DNA of 63,704 nt, the filler included, from Rozella allomycis CSF55 (taxonomy: Eukaryota): NCBI GenBank assembly GCA_000442015.1. It is 21 parts of 21 records of this genome, joined end to end, with 100 filler letters (N's around TTAATTAATTAA, not from the genome) between each part and the next. Parts side by side here need not be neighbours in the genome. Positions count along the whole stretch, not along the records: positions 28,728 to 40,883 come from KE561278.1; 20 more parts are not named here. One strand, given 5' to 3'. Made by a program: the position numbers and the translations under genes. Within the stretch, counting starts at the first letter, position 1; each line of letters opens with the position of its first letter. The notes beneath the pieces were generated by a model. That model ran no database searches. It saw nothing but the letters and a program-made list of their open reading frames with translations, and was not told the origin of the DNA. Positions 28,628 to 46,900 of this stretch are shown here, in pieces.

Positions 28628-28821
28628 NNNNNNNNNNNNNNNNNNNNNNNNNNNNNNNNNNNNNNNNNNNNTTAATTAATTAANNNNNNNNNNNNNNNNN
28701 NNNNNNNNNNNNNNNNNNNNNNNNNNNTATTCCTTGCCTTTATTCTTTACTTGTGCATCAACTTTCTTTCTTTATTCATTATTTTTGAAAACCCATTTTT
28801 GGAAATCCGCAATTTCAAAAA

Positions 28822-31439
<2,618 letters not shown>

Positions 31440-31489
31440 ATGTTTTATATATTTTCTTTACTTGAATTGTTTACAAAACATTTTCTCTA

Positions 31490-33086
31490 ATGATGTTGGC
31501 AAATGATTCATTTGTTCCGTCTACTTTAAATTATTCCCAATTTTATCAAACAACTGGCCAATCTTCATCATATCAACAACAAATCTCATTTTCGATTTCA
31601 AAAAAGGAATTGTTCACCCCTTCAAATGGGTTCAAATCATTAATTAAAAAATTGAAGCATAATTTCAAAATCTCTCAGTAAGTTGAATCACATTTAATTG
31701 TTGCAGAATAAAATCTGAAATTAATGTCGAAGCAATTTCTTCATCAAAGCTGCTAATTATTGCAGCGCCATCTGAGAAATATTCATCTAAAGAGTTTGAT
31801 GCTCTGCATGCATTTATTGATCATGGAGGTGCTTTATTGTACTTGGGAACTGAAGGTACTGAAAAATCGAATTTTAACTACTTTTTGGAAGAGTTTGGCA
31901 TTTCAGTAAACTCTGGTACAAATATTAAAAGCATTAAAAATAGGTACACTTCATGCATGTATTTTATAAGATTCGGTGACAAGGACTTCATACTTTAAAT
32001 ATTTTCATCCAAAGGAAAACTTCATTTCAAACGGAATAATAAACAGAGAAATAAACCGCATAGCGGGAAAACAACCAAAATCAATGACTGAAAATGAAAA
32101 TGTTCTTGATGCATTACCATCAGCTAATAGAATTGGACGACAGAGTTTTAGCAACCAGTATGCAAACCAGCAATACAATTTTAGTGATTTGACTATGGTT
32201 TACCCATTCGGCTCTACAATAAATGTAGATAAGCCAAGTGTCCCAATAATATCAACAGGTAGTGCCTCATACCCTACAAACAGGCCGATCGGCGCAGTTT
32301 ACCACCAAGTAATAAACTTGATGCTTTATTTAAAAGTATGGCAAAGGCAAAATCGTGGTCTTGGGTTCGTGTCACATATTTAGTGATCAATATTTGGACA
32401 AGGAAGAAAATGGAAAGTTGTTTGACGCGATTATCAAGTTTCTATTAGACGGTAATACCAAGTTTAGAATTGAAGTAGACCATTTGTGTCTTGACTCGAT
32501 TGACGCGGACGATCCTGATGTAATTACGTTGTACGTTTGATATGCAGGTTTCCGATTACCATTATGTCCCCGATATATTTTCACATTCAGAACAAATTAA
32601 ATGTTGCATACAAGAAAGCGAAGAGCCTCCCAAGGACTTTAGAAAAATGTTCGATAAATCTCTGTTTAAGTTTGACATGAATCTATTTCCCAAGGTCTTG
32701 AAGGCTCATGAAGTAAGTATCACAACGATTAGACATCAAGGTATTAAAAGTGAAGCCAGTTCCTTTAACCTTAATAGAACCACAGGTAAATCTTTTTCAA
32801 GCTCCTAAAACAGTTTGAGTTGCCACTGCCTGAATTTGAACCCGCAGTTTTCCCACCTACTTTTAGATCCCTACCTCCGCCGCCACTTGAATTGTTTGAT
32901 TTAGATGAAGAATTTGCAACCAATGAAGAAAAACTTGCAAAACTGGCAAACAAATGTAGCTCAGATGATATTGACTATTTTATCAAAGAAGCCGGTAAAA
33001 TTTTTGGATTTTACAATGACGATTCCTTTGGAATTCTAGAAAAGGTTGTCCGTCAGATTATAGACTGGAAAAAAGTTAATATATAA
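31490..33086 (+). CDS. IFT52: Intraflagellar transport protein 52
   Basis: NFNYFLEEFGI, KYFHPKE, VYPFGSTINV, PQFELPLP, PAVFPPTFRSLPPPPLELFDLDEEF. Confidence 0.95.
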
Positions 33087-33120
33087 CAATAAATAGCATT
33101 CAAGGTTTTTATGTACATTG

Positions 33121-34032
33121 TCACAACAATCTGTGATTTCTGATAAGCGGATTTTCTTTTGCTATTTTCTCCCTACCTTCCTTTTTGAAATCGTAAGTGC
33201 ACAAGTGCTGATCGTTAAATCGGTGAGAAGGGCAAAAATAACCCCCGCATTTGCACTTGAATTGATTTGTTAATTTCAATTTTCTGTTACATTTTCCGCA
33301 GGAGTTACTTACTCCAGATACAGAAGGGGCAGTTATAAAAGATACACTTTCAACCTTTGGTAAAAATGACGACGTTGAAGGTGCGTGATTGAGAATAGTG
33401 GATGAGACAGACGTTGATTTTGATGGCATTCTACGCGACTGCGGTTCAACTTCATTTTTTTCGAATGATAAAGATTTTAAGCCATCAGAACTAGAAGTAT
33501 AGCTTTTTGAGCATGAAGACGCAGAACTTTGATTTGATCTCGACTCCTTCTTTAATGTACCAGCGGAAGTTGTATTAACTCTATTTCCTGTTAAGGCGTA
33601 GTATACTTTCATGGTTAACGGTGACAACTGTTTCATTTTTTGGACTGAGAGCTTCCCATCTCTCCAGTCGCACTCTGCTAAATAATGGTTTTCATCTTTC
33701 TTTAGCAGAATAACATAATTGGATTTTTTCGGCTTTTCTCGAGATAATGTACCGTCATTCATTTGGAGAACCATTTTTAAATGAGCGTTGTGGTATAATT
33801 TTGCATCTCTTAGAGTTAAGTTATCGCATAAGGCTTTGGATTGATATATAATTATCTGACTTTCTGCGCTTATTCCATAGTCTTTTTGAAGTTCTTCTTT
33901 CAAATCCAAAATAGTATCGCTTGGTAGCATTTCAGCAGATAATAATTGCCCCGATATTGTTTCTATCTTTATACTCCATATAAAAGGAGACGGACTGTGG
34001 GTATTGTTTTCACAGTAAGTGATGGAATGCAT
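33121..34032 (-). CDS. Ubiquitin-like + AN1 zinc-finger protein (ZFAND4-like)
   Basis: IETISG...DTILDLK ubiquitin fold; CGKCNRKL...CKCGGYFCPSHRFNDQHLCTYDFK. Confidence 0.9.
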   Translation of the reverse strand: MHSITYCENNTHSPSPFIWSIKIETISGQLLSAEMLPSDTILDLKEELQKDYGISAESQIIIYQSKALCDNLTLRDAKLYHNAHLKMVLQMNDGTLSREKPKKSNYVILLKKDENHYLAECDWRDGKLSVQKMKQLSPLTMKVYYALTGNRVNTTSAGTLKKESRSNQSSASSCSKSYTSSSDGLKSLSFEKNEVEPQSRRMPSKSTSVSSTILNHAPSTSSFLPKVESVSFITAPSVSGVSNSCGKCNRKLKLTNQFKCKCGGYFCPSHRFNDQHLCTYDFKKEGREKIAKENPLIRNHRLL

Positions 34033-34124
34033 AGTGGAGTTGGTGTCTAAGGGCTATAATTAGTATCACTACCTACGAAGTCAAAATCTGATTAAACGGA
34101 AATTGAAACAATGATAGAGTTTAT

Positions 34125-34451
34125 TTAACGACTACTTATCAAAGCTGCTAAAAAATTAGAAATTGGCATATATCCTTTTCTAATTAACCGCATTTCATAG
34201 TTCTCTGTGTACCCTTCGTTTAGATTTCGTCCATATTCTTCAGTATCATATGAGCAATTAACTTCATTGACATCATATTTAACCTCTCTATTTAGTGAAG
34301 GACTGATATGTTCGGTTATTGGTTTTCTATTTTCTATATCTTCTTCGTCGTCACTATCAGCGTTTAAAAGTATGCTCTGATGTGCAAGTCGCATTTCTTT
34401 GAATTTCGGTTGCTCCTCGTCTGAGCTGTTAAATTCCCTCTTCTTTTTCAA
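34125..34451 (-). CDS. Hypothetical small acidic protein
   Basis: ORF with AATAAA-like sequence at the stop; start uncertain. Confidence 0.45.
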   Translation of the reverse strand: MKKKREFNSSDEEQPKFKEMRLAHQSILLNADSDDEEDIENRKPITEHISPSLNREVKYDVNEVNCSYDTEEYGRNLNEGYTENYEMRLIRKGYMPISNFLAALISSR

Positions 34452-34764
34452 ACTCGCACTGGATATTGTATTTGAATGTGTTATGAAAAACTATTTTGAA
34501 ATGTATGGAATTCTACTTGAGTATCAACTTGTATTGGAGTTGGAATATTTTGCGATAAATTTGGCTCAAAATCAAATTCGACATCTTTAAACAGATAAAC
34601 GGATACATACCTAAAAGATTTTTCACTCTTTGACTCTCAGGAATTATACAATCGAGTTCATCAATTTCTCTAGGAAACCCTTGATAACTATGGTTGAAGA
34701 ATTCATCCCATAACTTCTTAAGCGATGAATCTTCTTTTTGTCTTTTTTGGCCAACAAATCTTTC

Positions 34765-35917
34765 TTACAGTAAGACAAACTTTGCAACATCTGGATTGGC
34801 GTGAATGTCGATAGGATTTCCTTTCCTCTTATTATCAATGTTTAAGCAAGTTATTGAAATATCATTGACTAATATAGTGAATTTGTTGTCTTTAAACTGA
34901 ATGCAATAATCTGTGATAACTGCGTCCGCAAGGTTTAAAGTATTTAGTGATCCTTCTAAATTTCTTTTAAAGAAAAAAAGATGACATACTTTTCTATCGT
35001 TTTTCTACAAGTATCATTCAATATCAAAGGATAATAATAACTTTCATCCGAAAAATAAACATCGAGCGCTCCATTTCTTTCTGTCTAGGATCTTTATTCA
35101 CGTGCAGTCGTTACTGATATCAAAATTTGACCACCAATGCTTTTTCTAAGTGGATAACTTTCGAAAGGAATATTTTGAATAATATATTGTAGCAGTAGGG
35201 GCTTCCTGGGTTTTCTTTCCATTTATCGGGTAAAAGAAAATTTCTTTATTTATTTGGTAATAGACTAGGGAAAATGATAGTTTTCGAATTCATAAAATCC
35301 AGATTTGGTGCCTTTTCTTCTGATTTTGACGTGACTTCGCTAGATTGTCCATTAATTGGAACCTGGAAAATTTTTGTTTCAGTCGAAGAATTTGTATCCG
35401 TTGGAGTTTCAAACATCATCAAATCCACCATGGATAATTGTTTGATGTCAGTAGAATTCGCATTTGAAAGAGGTGGCGGGAAATTGAATAGGTTGTCATA
35501 AGGTGATAATGAAGGTTTCCGACCTAATATGTCACCCATCGAATCAAACGATGCACCCAAGTCACTCGAAGGCAATGTTAGAGAATGAGAACTTGAAGCA
35601 TATGCAGGTACTGATATCGATGCTCTCCTTTCCCCAGATTTTTCTTTCTCACTACTAAAATCTACTTTATCTTCTACTCAAAAAGAATTACTGGTCGAAA
35701 AGTAGTCTAATTTATTCTCATTCACCTGTATTGAAGGGCTGGGCGGATGATTTTTATCTGCATGCTTGGAAGCCTCCCAAACATTTTCTAATCCTAACTC
35801 ATCAAGTGAAGTGTTGAGCCATGCTTTTGAAGAATTGGATCCCTTGCCATCTTCTCTTAAAGGAACCTTTTTCTCGGTGCTATCAGTACTCCACGGATCA
35901 TCAAAATTTGGCAACAT
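34765..35917 (-). CDS. Hypothetical spliced protein, Ser-rich N-terminus
   Basis: 79-aa and 109-aa ORFs plus downstream exons joined by 27-30-nt GT-AG introns; boundaries approximate. Confidence 0.5.
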
Positions 35918-35994
35918 TACGAAATTTCTTATTGCTCACGTTGTTTTGTATTGTGAAATAAATTGATTTAAGGACTGGGCAATACTATTTGTTT

Positions 35995-38900
35995 ATGTTT
36001 AGTCTAGAAAATTTTACCGATCTTCTTCCTCCGTTTGCTGATGAGCAAAGCAAACAGCTTGATTTAAAGGTAAGATATATACTAGAATAGGATAAGATCA
36101 AGCAAAAGCATGCGGAGATGCAAAAATTGGAGCATCGAATTGAGGAACAAAAAAGGCGCCGAGATTTGATGAAAGAACACATGAAGAATATACGAACAGA
36201 ATTCGGCCAATGTCAATCATTGAAGGATGCAAAGAAGAGAGAGATGGACACAGAAAACAACTTGAGACAAATTGCGGAACGACAAATTGGCCGTATGCAT
36301 CAAGAAATGAGACGCTTATTAAATGAAATTGATGGTGTTACTGGTCATGTAAATATTAATGCACTATCTAATTTAACAGATAAACAATTTGCAAAGGAAT
36401 ATCCATCAATCCAATGAGAACATTGAAAAGATGCGACAAAGTATGAAAATGAGCAAAGAAGAACTTGATGAATGGCTGAAGATACAAAATGAAAAAGAGG
36501 AGGATATGATGGCGATGGCAAAGTATAGCAGACAAGATGATACAAGAATTAAAGAAATCATGTTGAAACTAGAGAAGATGTTGGGTGAAGTACACAAGAA
36601 GAAACAAGAATTGTCTCTGGAAGTTACAGAAACGCAGGCGGTTCAAATAGAATTAGCCAAAACAACAGAAATGTTCCATTCTCTTCACAATGAAAGACAA
36701 CAATTGATAAAAAGATGGGAGAATTTGATAGCTAATTTTACAGAGAAAGATGCTGATATTGAAAGCAAAAGAAACGAAGTAGAGCAACTTCAAGTATGCA
36801 AGCCTGAATCCAAATTTTAGAAATTAATTAACGAAAAAGTTGCTATTGTAAATGAAAAGCAAGCATTTTTAAACGAACAAATAGACAGAGCGGAATCCAT
36901 CGAAAAGAAGATTGAATTGACTGATCGGCTCGTGGGAAAAATCAGGTAACGAAAGAAAAGAAATATTAGAAGGTTGGAAGAACAAGAGTCCAGTTTGTCC
37001 TTGAAAGAATTCCAAGATGAAGTTGAAATGATAAGAAGCACCTTGAACAAGAGTAAAAATGCATTTTCTATTTTACTAAAGCTACAATCGAGTTGAATTC
37101 CAAAAAAGTGGAAATAAACAACCTAAGAAATGATCTTCAAAAAAGGCAAGACAGATTAGAAAAGGAAAACAAACAACGAAAAGAAGCTAAAAATAGACTC
37201 GAACAAGCCACAGACAAAACAGTCTCATTAGAGTCCAAAGCGGCGTCATTACAAGATATATTGAAGCAAGATGAAGAGAAATTTAAAGGACTTGAAAAGG
37301 AAATCAAAAATTTGAGAGAAATCCGTATAGTTTATTTTTTTCGCTAAATAGAATTCAAAAAGACGCAACAAGTATTTCAATTTAGAAAGGACGAGCAAGA
37401 CTTGACGGCTGAAATTTCTGGTGCTGAAGCCACCATCAAGAATTGGCATTCTAAAATATCAAAGTATAATATGGGAAATGATAATATAGGCTTGAAGATC
37501 AAATTCAAAAACAGCTGGAATTGATTTACAATCAAGATTTCCAGATCCAATTATTAGAAAGGAAGATTAGAAAAATCAAAGGAGAAAAATCAGAAGAAGA
37601 AAAAGAAGTTCTCAATGAAAAAATAAAAGAGTTGACATTGGCATTAGCAGAGTCTAAAAAGAAGCATTCATTGCTAAGTCAGCAATACAAAAAGTCTTTG
37701 GATGAAATTCGTAGGTTTACCAAACAATACGAAAACTTATTGAAGGAACGTAAAGGTAAAGTTGATATGTCTTAATTCTAAAATAGGTAATTAATGTTTA
37801 TGATGATAATGAGGTATAATTATTTGATGGCAAAATAAAGGTGTGGACCAAGCTTTGGATGATATAACATTGTATAATGATAGTGCCCAACGCCAGCTAG
37901 TTTCAAAGATTAAGGAAAAGGAAGAATTTATGGTCGAAGAAAATCTTTTAAGATTAGAATTGCAAAGATTACGAACATTTTTATCGTCAAGAGCAGATCA
38001 GGTAATTAAACTGAATGGAAATAAAAGGTCTATTCATTAGAGGCAAGACAGGTTCAATTGCAATTAGCCCTTGAAGAAAGGCAAAAGGAAATCGATTTGA
38101 ATCAAGAAATTACGAAATCACAAATAAAATTTGCTCAAGAAGAAAAGTAAACGGAGATTTGGAGTTTCAAAAGGCAACAAGTTAAGTTACAGATACGAGA
38201 GAAGAATGCGAAAATTCAAAAATTGAAAAACAAATATGATGTGTTGATTGCGAAAATAAATTCAGATGAAGAAGAACATTCTCAAGCTTACTATGTAATT
38301 AAAGCATCTCAAGTAAATAATTTAATAAATTGTAATTAGCGAAGAGAGGAGCTGCAAAGGGAAGGTGATGCGTTGGATGCTAAAATAAGAAAGGCAGAGG
38401 CGGAGATAAAGGCGTTAGAAAACACTTTGAATCTCTTAAACACAAGGAATTCAAAATACAGAAATACGTAATTGAATGTAATTGTTGTGGACAAGACTTA
38501 CAATGCCAGACAACAATTCAGAGGAAGTGAAACAAAAAATGATTTTAGAGCAGCAAATAAAATCTGCAGTTGACAAACTCCAATCAAAAAAGTCCGACTT
38601 GGAAAAGATTCAAAAAGAAATTGAAGGATTGGATTCTTCTCTACAGATTTATCATCAAGAAGAATCCAACCTGTCCAGTTCTATAGATGAGCTTCAAAGC
38701 AAGTTAGATTCACTAATCAAAGATATCGAAGACCAAGAAGCAAGAAAACAAAGATCAACTCTCTTAATAAAAAAGTATTCTAAAAATGATTTATAAAAAA
38801 AGGATTGCGAATAATCTAAAAAACCAAGAAAAGGATTTGTATGAAATGGCTTCACAGGATATCCTCTTAAAGGAACTAAAAGAAAACAATAATCAATTGT

Positions 38901-39431
38901 TACTTCAAATAGAATCTCTTTCTTCCCAATTTCCAGAAATAAAATTGGCTCTAAACTCATACTATGAACAAGTAATTCATTGAAAGTCCAATTTATTTAA
39001 AGAATGGTTTGATTGTGAACCCAGACAAGCTGAATGCATTGCCATCAAAAAGGTCTGCAAGTAGGCATAGCGTATCATCTAAACCTTCAACAAGGTAAAA
39101 TTTAAACCTCAAAAATAAAAGAAATCAAAGCCGCGCTGCTTTAGTTTCACTTGATGTTGCTTTCACTAAAGAACAACCTAGCACAATATCCCCCTCATTG
39201 GAGAATACTACAAATCATTCAAGACCTCCATCAAATTTGAGACAACTAAAATTTTCAAAAAGGTCCACGCCTATCCAACAAAACGAAAGAGAATACATTT
39301 CAAAAAGTAATTCAATGGATAAATTAGCGATTCACGCATCTACCCCGAGAAGTGTTGTAACAAAAGATGGCGACAAAATAGAATCTGATGCATTAAAAGA
39401 ACCATTAAAAGAAGCTAATGTTACTCAATAA
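35995..39431 (+). CDS. CCDC39: Axonemal ruler protein CCDC39
   Basis: Long coiled coil; [64 protein letters not shown]. Confidence 0.92.
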
Positions 39432-39465
39432 TAAAGTTTTCAAATGATGGTTTATTTCAGTTTAC

Positions 39466-40253
39466 TCAAATTCCTCCCATATATTTACCACCAGCGGCAA
39501 ATGCATCAGCTCCTAAAACGGCTTCTTTTTGTAATTTAATGAATAATACTGCGGAAGCAGCTAATCCAAGTACCTTTTGTAAAGTTAGATAGTAAACTAT
39601 ACCTGGAAGAAGGCCATAGTAATCGCTACACTTCCAATTGCATCCAAATGTGAGAATACTTGTTGCTTCATAACCAACATACAAGGTCTTTGAAAACCAA
39701 AGTTTGCATCTGTTGAACAGTCAGTAGGAACCGCCAATTCTGTAATGTTTTTAAATCCACAACATTTAAACTTTTGTTCCAAATATCTATCAAAAAATTG
39801 GCACATGCATACCGTATTGATGATGGATCGTTACTGATGCTAGCCTTCCAAACCTGCTCAACTGCTCTTTCAATATCACTTGCACGGGATAGCGCAACAC
39901 TTCCAATGATTACTTGAATTAGAAATATGGCACATAAAAGGCCAAAGAACTTAAAATTCAATGCATATAAATTTACTATTTTAAGAGATTTGATGTGTTC
40001 CTTGACAGCTGCAACTATTCCAAGAGTAGATATTATACATGCAAGAAATCCAATACCAATAAGACCACCAAATATAGATTGAGTAGCTACTCCGGTGCGA
40101 TCGTCTTGAACTGCAAGGCCAGTAATACCACCTCCAATAAGAAGCAACCCACTGAGCTAATTGATAAGAGAACAAATTAATTACCAAAGTTATAAGATTG
40201 GTAACTACTAAAATATACTTAAACACACGAAAAGTGAATAAAGCTGGAAGCAT
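39466..40253 (-). CDS. Tetraspanin (4 introns)
   Basis: Four TM helices and the CCG motif (LEQKFKCCGF). Confidence 0.88.
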
Positions 40254-40402
40254 TGTCGGGAATTATGGTATCCAAGTGGTTTGTTTCACATTTGATAACT
40301 TAATCTATTTTTAGAAAACTTTAGTTTTGATTTAGTTGAAGATAAGCTTTCATTATGATATGTATATATAATGAACTTTAAATCTACTATACTGTTTTCA
40401 AA

Positions 40403-40732
40403 ATGACTGCAAGAAAATATCACAAAGGTATGAATCCTAATAATTGCACCTTTAGGTGACCATGTCGAATATCACCCAGTTGGAGGTGAACACAATATGG
40501 TAAAGGCAGTAGGGAGAATAACGAAAATAATAACAAGTGAGGAGGTTTGGTCATTTTTATTTCATAACAATAGGAAGACCATTTTGGTAGAAAAATACAT
40601 GCTTCAAAAGATGAACCTCGCTACATGATCTTAAACGATCACACTCAGAAAGAGACGTAAATCTTTATTAGTTAAAATGATAGTGCGTATAAAGAATCCA
40701 ATATTGTACGGGTCATCGAGGACGAAGAGTGA
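40403..40732 (+). CDS. Small Hva1/DUF2945 Tudor-like protein (3 introns; absent from the ORF track)
   Basis: Spliced: MTARKYHKGDHVEYHPVGG...VGRITKII...HASKDEPRYMILNDHTQKETAYKESNI. Confidence 0.75.
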
Positions 40733-41119
40733 ATAAATNGCGGGTCATTGAGGACGAAGAGTGAATAAATACTATTTTAATAATTGAACTTATTATGACT
40801 TGAAATTAGAAAACAATGGTCTATTTAACATTGTTGTCTGTTTTCTTTGTCATCAATGAGGATACAAAATTTTAAGATGGGACNNNNNNNNNNNNNNNNN
40901 NNNNNNNNNNNNNNNNNNNNNNNNNNNTTAATTAATTAANNNNNNNNNNNNNNNNNNNNNNNNNNNNNNNNNNNNNNNNNNNNAACATTCACACATCATC
41001 ATCCATTAGGAGCTATGTGATCTGTTCAAAACGATACTACTTTAGATGGTTGTATTTGAAGTATAAATAAGCTTAATATATTACACAAAATCAAATAAGA
41101 AAAGTATATTTTTCAAAAT

Positions 41120-43992: not shown

Positions 43993-46900
43993 ATGGACGA
44001 AATTCTTCCCAAAAAGCAGCACCGATCCAAGCAAAGCGGTGCAAAGCTAAAGAAAAAGCAAAAAAGCACTTCCTCTGAAAACCCGCGAGTAAAAAGTTTA
44101 GATGGATATAAAAGGCATTTGCGTTCCAGAGTGGGCAAAAGGCTGAGCGAGCAGCGCGCCGAACGCTGGATCTGGGGGAGAAGCGTTTGCATGTTCCTAT
44201 GGTTGATAGAACGAGTATGGAGCCGCCGCCTATTGTCGTGGCTGTTGTTGGGCCGCCTGAAGTAAGGTTTGTTGGGTGGTTGAATAGGTTGGCAAGAGCA
44301 CGTTGATTAGAGATTTGGTGAAGAGATATACAAAGCATAATGTGAATGAGATCAAGGGGCCGATTACTGTTGTAGCTGGGAAGAATAGAAGGTTGACGTT
44401 TATTGAGTGTGCGAATGATATTAATGCGATGATTGATGTGGCAAAGATTGCTGATCTTGTGCTGCTGCTTATTGATGCGTCTTTTGGGTTTGAGATGGTA
44501 AGAGTGAAGCGATTGGTTGAGGTAGGAAACATTTGAGTTTTTAAATATCCTGCAGACACATGGGTTTCCAAAAGTTATTGGAGTTTTGACGCATTTGGAT
44601 TCATTCAAGGATAATAAAAAGCAGAAAAAGACGAAAAAGATGTTGAAGCAGAGATTTTGGACTGAGATTTACCAGGGCGCAAAGTTGTTTTATTTGTCTG
44701 GGATGATTAATGGAAGATATTTGAAGAATGAGATTCATAATTTGTCTAGATTTATTTCAGTGATGAAGTTTAGGCCGCTAGCTTGGAGGAATTCGCATCC
44801 GTATTTGGTTGTTGATAGAGTTGAAGATTTGACGAGTGCGGAAAAGATTAGAGAGAATAATAAAGTGGATAGAACGATATCGGTGTATGGGTATGTGCGC
44901 GGAACTAATTTGAAGCCGAATTCCAAGGTGCATATTCCTGGAGCTGGCGATCAAGTGATTAAAGAGATTAGTTTGTTGGAAGACCCATGTCCGTTGCCTG
45001 ATGTGAAGAATAAGGTTACTGGAAAGAAGAGAAGAACATTGAAGGAGCAAGAAAAGTTGATTTATGCGCCAATGACGGATGTAGCTGGTATTTTGTATGA
45101 TAAGGATGCTGTTTATATTGATATTCCAGAGAGAATGATAAGAAACAAAGAGAAGCAATCTGAAGGAGAGCAAATATTGGAAGAGATTGCGAATGTTGGA
45201 GGAACTTTGGATGAACAGATGGAAGAAACAGGGGTTTCAATGTTTAAGGGAGGTGAGAGAGTCAGAAGAAGGGTTACATTTGGAGATGAAGTAGATGAGA
45301 CTGATGAAGAAGAAGATGAAGGTGAAAGTGACGAGGATGAAGAAATTGATGATAACGAACAAATGGATGTAGAGGGTGAAAGTGGTGAAGAAGAGAATGA
45401 AGGCCCTCACAATGACGATGATGATCTTGATAATGAAGAAGTTTTAGACTATGGCGATGACGATGATGAAGATGAAGAGTGCAATGATAAATGGAAAGAA
45501 AATTTTCAACAAATGTTTTCAAAAAAGAGAGTGAATTTGATGAAAATGGTTTATGATGAAGATGAAGCAAGAGGAGAAGAAGATGTAGAAGAAGAAAGTG
45601 AAGAAGAAGAGTTGTTTAAAAAGGCCAGAAAGGTTGTTGATGAAAAGGATCAACTTTTAGATTCCTTCAAGTTTAAATTTAATAAAGAAAAGTATTTTGA
45701 TGAAAATGAGTTGAGAGAGATTGGAAATAAGTTTATTACAGGAAAGAATGAAGAAGATGAAGAAATTTATGGAGATTTTGAAGATTTAGAAAAATCAAAT
45801 GAAGACGAAGAAATTTCAGAAAATGAAAAGATGGAAAGAAAAAGAGAAATTTTAAAGAAAAAGTTTGATGAAGAATTTGATAATAAAGATAAAATAAAGT
45901 TTGATACTTTTTATGATGAAATGAAGAATGAAATGAATCAACAACAACAAAAGAATATTGAAGAATTTAAAGATTTGGATGATCAATCAAAGATTCAATT
46001 GTTGGGATTTTCAGCAGGGATGTATGTTAGAATTGTTATAGAAAATGTTACTTGTGAATTAATTGAACATTTTGACCCTTGCTATCCAATGATTTTGGGT
46101 GGACTTCAAATGAATGAAGAATCATTTGGATTCATTCAAACTAGAATAAAGAAACATAGATGGTTCAATAGAGTATTAAAAACAAATGATCCATTGATTA
46201 TCTCTCTTGGATGGAGAAGATTTCAAACTATTCCAGTTTATTCTATATGCACAGATGGTGATAGAAATAGAATGTTAAAATACACACCTGAACACATGCA
46301 TTGTCTTGCTACATTTTATGGTCCAACTTGCGCTCAAAATGTTGGTTTTTGTGCCTTTCAATCTGTTTCTGATGTTTCTTCTCAATTCAGAGTAAGAGCT
46401 ACTGGGGTTACCCTTGGAATGAACAAATCTACAAACATTAACAAAAAATTAAAAATTGTTGGATATCCAATAAAGATTCACAAAAAAACTGCATTCATTA
46501 AAGATATGTTCAACTCTGCTCTAGAAGTGGCAAAGTTTGAAGGCGCAGTCATTAAATCTGTTTCTGGTATCAGGGGTGTTATTAAAAAGGCTATCAAAAG
46601 TCCAGAAGGTGCATTCAGAGCAACGTTTGAAGATAAAATATTAATGAGCGACATTATCTTTCTTAGAACTTGGTATCCAGTTAAACCCAAGGTATTTTAC
46701 AACCCTGTCACTTCTCTTTTGCTTTCAAACAAACTTTCTTGGAATGGAATGCGTCTATCTTCTCAAGTCAGAAAAGATGACAACATTCCCCTCAAATCAA
46801 ACTCTGATTCAATCTACAAAGTAATCCATTCCATCTCCTTTAATCTTAGAAAATTGAACGCGTTGAAAAGAGATTCAATTCTCTCAAAATTCCAAAGAAA

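Follow-up and report, generated by a model that had tools for sequence, protein, structure and literature searches.

Head-to-tail arrays of abutting 27- to 31-nt introns in two flagellar genes of a Rozella-like genome as candidates for recursive splicing at the minimal intron size

Zero-nucleotide-exon recursive splicing, known from Ubx in Drosophila and from the long introns of vertebrates, operates on animal introns of tens of kilobases and proceeds from 5′ to 3′ during transcription. Complex intervening sequences are divided into two named classes in the available text of PMC6616335 (citing Burnette 2005 and Georgomanolis 2016), with abutting U2 introns, removed by recursive splicing, set against nested introns, and the accessible part of a Drosophila report gives 196 zero-nucleotide-exon ratchet points (bioRxiv 10.1101/006163). 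Fungal stwintrons are complex interruptions made of several U2 units that are excised consecutively under intron definition, and in these the internal intron is nested in a splice signal of the external one, which is functional only after the first excision; in the [D6,7] "stwintron sensu lato" of Lipomyces, two donor hexamers abut. Ultra-short introns are found in Paramecium and other ciliates, dicyemids, myxozoans and microsporidia, with a tight length distribution whose centre lies under 30 nt and with reduced splice signals. For Rozella itself, two putative introns of ~30 nt in the S23 gene of R. allomycis are mentioned in passing in the available text of PMC6349667, and a fungal survey reports 2.5 introns per kb, with no length given in the portion available (PMC8476143).

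In a window of 63.7 kb (the whole stretch of DNA that we analyzed), we identified two interruptions of protein-coding genes that consist of complete GT..AG introns placed head to tail, one of 85 nt in the gene encoding CCDC39 (positions 37756-37840) and one of 55 nt in IFT52 (31916-31970), with both arrays located on the same contig (Table 1). These arrays share with zero-nucleotide-exon recursive splicing the juxtaposition of AG|GT inside the interruption, the status of each segment as a formally complete intron, and the usable donor that removal of a segment leaves at the new junction. When compared with the class of abutting U2 introns, they show AG|GT without an intervening exon and competent signals in every segment (47th to 99th percentile of ordinary introns), and they do not subdivide a kilobase-long intron, being 85 and 55 nt long. 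Unlike animal ratchet introns, the arrays total 55-85 nt and their units, at 27-31 nt, have the standard minimal size of this organism; removal in animals runs from 5′ to 3′, whereas the order of removal in the arrays is unconstrained by sequence, the host is a fungus-like parasite, and stepwise removal is something that we infer here.

Likeness to stwintrons is limited to the arrays being complex fungal interruptions of several U2 units, and to a pair of abutting donor hexamers (GTAAAG|GTAAAG, 37750-37761) that can be compared with the Lipomyces arrangement. The array units, unlike those of stwintrons, lie side by side with GTA start and AG end intact before any excision, and examination of each array identified no internal intron interrupting a donor, branch point or acceptor; the arrays are not stwintrons, because no unit interrupts another's signal. 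An earlier note on this DNA had contrasted nested fungal stwintrons with tandem units, and the end-to-end tiling of the units bears this out. Its statement that no description of such splicing exists was too strong, since abutting U2 introns are a named class in the available parts of PMC6616335 and bioRxiv 10.1101/006163, and it stands as regards scale, in that the abutting architecture with unit introns of 27 nt appears to be undescribed. Our search of the literature on tandem or abutting tiny introns found none at this scale, with supplementary intron-length tables and the Rozella genome paper outside its scope, and tandem zero-exon arrays are unmentioned in the available portions of the literature on ciliate introns and on the shortest animal introns.

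Table 1. Positions in the window of the two arrays, their unit introns and the surrounding CCDC39 features. Scores are percentiles among ordinary single introns.
Feature	Position	Strand	Length and ends	Score (percentile)	Remarks
CCDC39 gene, approximate span	35973..39431	+			13 modelled intervening sequences from 36443 on, plus ~3 upstream
Upstream CCDC39 exon	37490..37755	+			Ends after base 1 of a Gly codon (phase 1)
Exonic GTAAAG before unit 1	37750..37755	+	GTAAAG		Possible alternative donor; abuts the identical GTAAAG of unit 1
CCDC39 array, unit intron 1	37756..37786	+	31 nt, GTAAAG..ATAG	99th	Retention gives a premature stop
CCDC39 array, unit intron 2	37787..37813	+	27 nt, GTAATT..TGAG	79th	Retention gives a premature stop
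CCDC39 array, unit intron 3	37814..37840	+	27 nt, GTATAA..AAAG	56th	Retention gives a premature stop
Downstream CCDC39 exon	37841..38001	+			Starts with GT, completing the Gly codon
IFT52 array, unit 1	31916..31943	+	28 nt, GTACAA..ATAG	65th	
IFT52 array, unit 2	31944..31970	+	27 nt, GTACAC..TAAG	47th	

The gene carrying the larger array was identified as CCDC39 by a match to its protein family and by collinearity with orthologs. Pfam PF24161 was matched above its gathering score in four exon translations (E-values of 6e-27, 1e-11 and 8e-19 on three of these exons), and the spliced model aligned to the chytrid CCDC39 protein P0001 as a single segment of 777 columns with 43% identity; chytrid fungi are also the source of the closest proteins. 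Mapped onto P0001, the upstream exon reaches residue 524, the Gly codon split as G|GT corresponds to residue 525, and the downstream exon continues from residue 526. Comparison with the public protein P0015, labelled Rozella allomycis CSF55 at NCBI and 99% identical, gave 486 aligned residues with no gaps, and this protein runs straight over the junction (..KERKGVEQ.. / ..LLKERKGVEQALDD..). Our first scan of metagenomes for orthologous CCDC39 array loci identified none, and a second scan identified one, locus L001 (positions 806-1741), which belongs to a different organism and encodes a 63%-identical CCDC39 segment in one uninterrupted frame of 312 codons. L001 has no intron at the array site, and the CCDC39 intron positions of the window are absent from it over that span; at the level of alignment, this locus is a confirmation of collinearity at the array site and is uninformative on the origin of the array.

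Partition of the CCDC39 interruption showed that the 85 nt divide without remainder into three GT..AG units (31+27+27 nt), with AG|GTA junctions at 37786|37787 and 37813|37814 and an exon of 0 nt between them. Under the standard code, all 7 of the 7 combinations that keep at least one unit lead to a premature stop, and the frame is open only with full removal. The earlier note had claimed this exact three-way split, had held that no unit can be an exon, and had described the units as ordinary introns in size and in their GTA start; the partition and the seven retention products confirm the first two points, and the third agrees with the single introns of the window, where 98 of 103 are 26-30 nt long and 101 of 103 begin with GTA. 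Judged from conceptual translation and homology, all 85 nt must be removed, because every retention introduces a stop, the exons align gaplessly to chytrid CCDC39, and P0015 crosses the junction. Use of the upstream copy of the abutting donor hexamers would excise 91 nt, with the loss of 2 codons and the frame still open. Homologue spacing favours the donor at 37756 over that at 37750, because 11 residues separate KER/KEK from LYNDSA in L001 and P0001 as well as in the window's own CCDC39.

The second head-to-tail array, of 55 nt (28+27), lies in IFT52 and contains a single AG|GTA junction at 31943|31944. The Pfam IFT52_GIFT profile is collinear over it, the flanking exons matching up to profile position 105 and from 107, and all three retention combinations lead to a premature stop. 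Both P0020, which is labelled Rozella allomycis CSF55 at NCBI and is 91% identical to the exons of the window, and the Batrachochytrium dendrobatidis ortholog P0022 are gapless over the array site (VN[SP]DSVTRT), reading ..GISVNSDSVTRTSY.. and ..MMVNPDSVTRTVY.., respectively. With P0015 at 99% and P0020 at 91% identity to exons of the window, the source of this DNA is R. allomycis or a species very close to it. The IFT52 array, too, must on this comparison be removed in full, and its presence strengthens the case for a unit-wise interpretation. We also observe that the two arrays, both in flagellar genes, share strand and contig (28728-40883), lie ~6 kb apart and are both in phase 1; this shared gene type, strand and phase may be coincidence.

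Introns across the window were called on both strands with our own dynamic-programming gene finder, which uses codon log-odds from open reading frames of 110 codons or more, takes GT..AG introns and allows chains of units; it is a heuristic that favours unit-sized introns and was run on 63.7 kb. The 105 intervening sequences called comprise the two arrays and 103 single introns, which range from 25 to 38 nt in length: 25 nt (1 intron), 26 nt (20), 27 nt (28), 28 nt (28), 29 nt (16), 30 nt (6), 31 nt (3) and 38 nt (1). Checked against public proteins, the calls gave no gap with P0015 and one gap with P0020, at an optional 27-nt stretch. By these gene-finder calls the window shows the lengths centred below ~30 nt, with little spread, that characterize ultra-short-intron genomes. 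Unlike in ciliates, where a depletion of introns with a length divisible by three is reported in the available text of PMC5014332, such introns are not depleted here (34 of 103), and several of them contain in-frame stops. With one 38-nt intron among the calls, there is no sharp upper limit to intron length. Introns of 52-148 nt from a cruder first pass were discarded, a second pass having resolved them into unit introns plus short exons, or into gene ends. A branch-point motif with a preferred position was found in no intron class of the window, including the array units.

Reading TAA and TAG as Gln (code 6, i.e., a ciliate with Paramecium-like internal eliminated sequences) also opens the frames, and this reading was rejected because the stops sit in 27-nt introns and the best relatives are fungal. 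The code-6 translation aligned to chytrid CCDC39 P0001 (47% identity) with two gaps of nine residues each, and both gaps coincide with 27-nt GTA..AG stretches that hold in-frame stops (36794-36820 and 36946-36972). The in-frame TAA and TAG codons fall within 27-nt introns; therefore the standard code applies and these stretches are multiple-of-three introns.

A scan of the window for tandem shapes of the GTA type identified 28, of which 3 have coding flanks, and a looser scan gave 48 chains, none of which combines open flanks with units that are all as strong as those of the two arrays. One candidate at 44498-44555 (24+34) was rejected, since its second part is coding (..ETFEFLNILQTHGF..) and 44498-44525, of 28 nt, is the actual intron, and another at 39061-39121 was kept as an exon plus an intron.

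We estimated how often such partitions arise by chance from 300000 simulated introns per length, with GTA and AG ends fixed; their interiors were generated by a first-order model built on those of the 103 single introns. Division into units of 21-38 nt occurred in 2.8% of 55-nt simulated introns when units could start with GT and in 0.76% when GTA was required, and in 0.093% (279 of 300000) and 0.007% (21 of 300000), respectively, of those of 85 nt. Both of the long interruptions called in the window split into units and no unsplit one was called, so that the internal AG|GT at unit spacing that had been proposed as a check is found, within these 63.7 kb, in 2 of 2 longer interruptions and is rare in the simulations. 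The unit structure of the arrays is non-random.

Splice-site strength was scored from position weights at the splice sites together with interior composition, and each unit was ranked against the 103 ordinary single introns with leave-one-out scoring (Table 1). Exonic GT..AG decoys reached the scores of the array units in at most 0.7% of 1007 cases. Similarity between units of the same array is at background, 13-50% of 5253 random intron pairs scoring as high, and the internal sites are not leftovers of a recent duplication, because the units are no more alike than random pairs of introns; the internal AG|GTA junctions look maintained and not recently copied. RNA folds of the arrays are weaker than those of shuffled sequences (z of +1.05, +0.53 and +0.81), and no hairpin joins the outer splice sites, because the arrays fold worse than the shuffles.

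We consider it fairly probable that the 85 nt of CCDC39 are three autonomous ultra-short U2-type introns, separated by zero-length exons and removed in consecutive, separate reactions. In this proposal, a Rozella-like zoosporic fungus would have a spliceosome acting by intron definition on a narrow size class of ~25-38 nt, each GTA donor would be paired with its nearest AG acceptor, and the units would be excised singly, in separate reactions one after another, with each excision leaving an intact donor or acceptor beside an exon or a neighbouring unit. The order of removal would be free and the mRNA the same, because after every excision AG|GT or exon|GT is intact at the new junction, and removal would proceed one unit at a time, because abutting introns of 27 nt cannot hold two spliceosomes at once. 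Since all other introns are 25-38 nt long and short-intron splicing uses the nearest sites, unit-by-unit removal would be expected, and stepwise removal is a plausible default expectation for the mechanism. We infer, further, that selection keeps the internal sites. A broader version is that the length of interruptions is quantised: the spliceosome would span little beyond ~40 nt, and longer interruptions would exist only as head-to-tail chains of autonomous introns of 27-31 nt that abut without exon sequence between them and are removed singly in any order, such chains arising by insertion or duplication of unit introns at AG|GT and being kept by selection on the internal sites. We offer this version tentatively, as possible but rather doubtful; the arrays found in the window number two, both in flagellar genes on one contig.

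Against stepwise removal, a direct pairing of the outer donor with the outer acceptor is in principle conceivable, and a single 85-nt intron removed by its outermost GT and AG, with the internal AG|GTA as unused relics of duplication or insertion, would account for homology and public models that show just full removal. P0015 and P0020 represent just a non-coding treatment of the whole stretch and may themselves be homology-based. One-step removal also gains from the 38-nt intron, by which the length limit is not absolute, and from Microsporidia, relatives of Rozella, in which a 76-nt intron is spliced better than short ones according to the available text of PMC6349667. The exact unit structure, on the other hand, is improbable in a generic long intron, as the simulations show; the internal sites match ordinary ones in strength, while the interiors of the units have diverged to background similarity, and no RNA structure shortens the span. 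Nor was any long undivided intron found among the 105 calls, a small sample from 63.7 kb with a finder biased to unit size, and intron definition normally joins the nearest competent sites, as stated in the available part of PMC7138796. We regard one-step removal as unlikely, with some real chance of being correct.

Placement of both arrays in flagellar genes, CCDC39 and IFT52, and the premature stop in every partial product would also fit a regulatory role, in which the stacked introns are spliced slowly or conditionally and any RNA retaining a unit is broken down when zoospores are not being formed. We hold this to be very improbable, in that there are two cases only, from one contig, and AT-rich stretches of 27 nt are expected to hold in-frame stops by chance; it moreover presupposes stepwise splicing and does not compete with the stepwise reading. 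An artefact, whether mis-assembly, a pseudogene or DNA eliminated before expression (cf. the internal eliminated sequences of ciliates), might be suspected because the window strings together short draft contigs and the frames are open under code 6. Such an origin is barely credible and already largely refuted: among the contigs listed, those of three out of four DNA runs bridge all 85 nt (X5, 35221-40299; X6, 37235-38759; X7, 37685-38594), the rest of the gene is intact and keeps its collinearity with homologues over the 777 columns, the code is the standard one with fungal proteins closest, and in their GTA..AG ends the units resemble the other 103 introns. The draft contigs number ~21, are 1-12 kb long and are connected by identical N44-TTAATTAATTAA-N44 spacers at 20 sites between 2387 and 62661; therefore genes on either side of a spacer are not linked, and both arrays lie in the one piece at 28728-40883. 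Neither tRNA genes nor Rfam families at gathering score were found in the whole 63.7-kb window.

If the units are removed singly, as we consider fairly probable, the arrays would represent recursive splicing at the size extreme opposite to the known cases, would offer a natural read-out of the upper length limit of a minimal-intron spliceosome, and would show how a gene can gain new introns beside old ones without harm. Annotation would log such arrays as single introns of 55 or 85 nt, hiding the pattern, because gene models cannot hold zero-length exons. A Rozella-type genome with an intron mode of 27-28 nt does not figure among the ultra-short-intron lineages listed in the available part of PMC13644364, and this mode places the ultra-short regime next to the intron-poor Microsporidia.

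All four runs consist of DNA contigs and show no joints. They also contain a second haplotype, present at minority depth in X1 and being the form seen in X7, in which single bases are missing at 37760 and 37764, both in unit 1, and unit 3 carries the substitution T>A at 37817 together with an A inserted after 37831. Its units would be 29, 27 and 28 nt long, provided that the listed differences are complete. The listed changes spare both internal junctions, and with four events against 10 junction bases this is statistically uninformative. Just downstream of the array, C>A at 37848 changes Asp to Glu, which is the residue present in P0015. Over 31157-40738 this haplotype is a few percent divergent, one contig of 909 nt having 34 differing letters and 3 gaps, and a set of differences around 37039-37146 is common to X5 and X6. 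The organism or the sample is heterozygous or mixed.

Elsewhere in IFT52, a 27-nt stretch at 32158-32184 (+ strand; GTATGC..TTTAG) contains no in-frame stop; P0020 removes it (..SFSNHDLT..) and our gene finder reads it as nine codons, and it is therefore ambiguous between an intron of a length divisible by three and an alternatively retained segment. The same gene contains an exon of 45 nt (32741-32785, + strand) between two 28-nt introns, and this exon is present in P0020 (..VLKVKPVPLTLIEPQ..).
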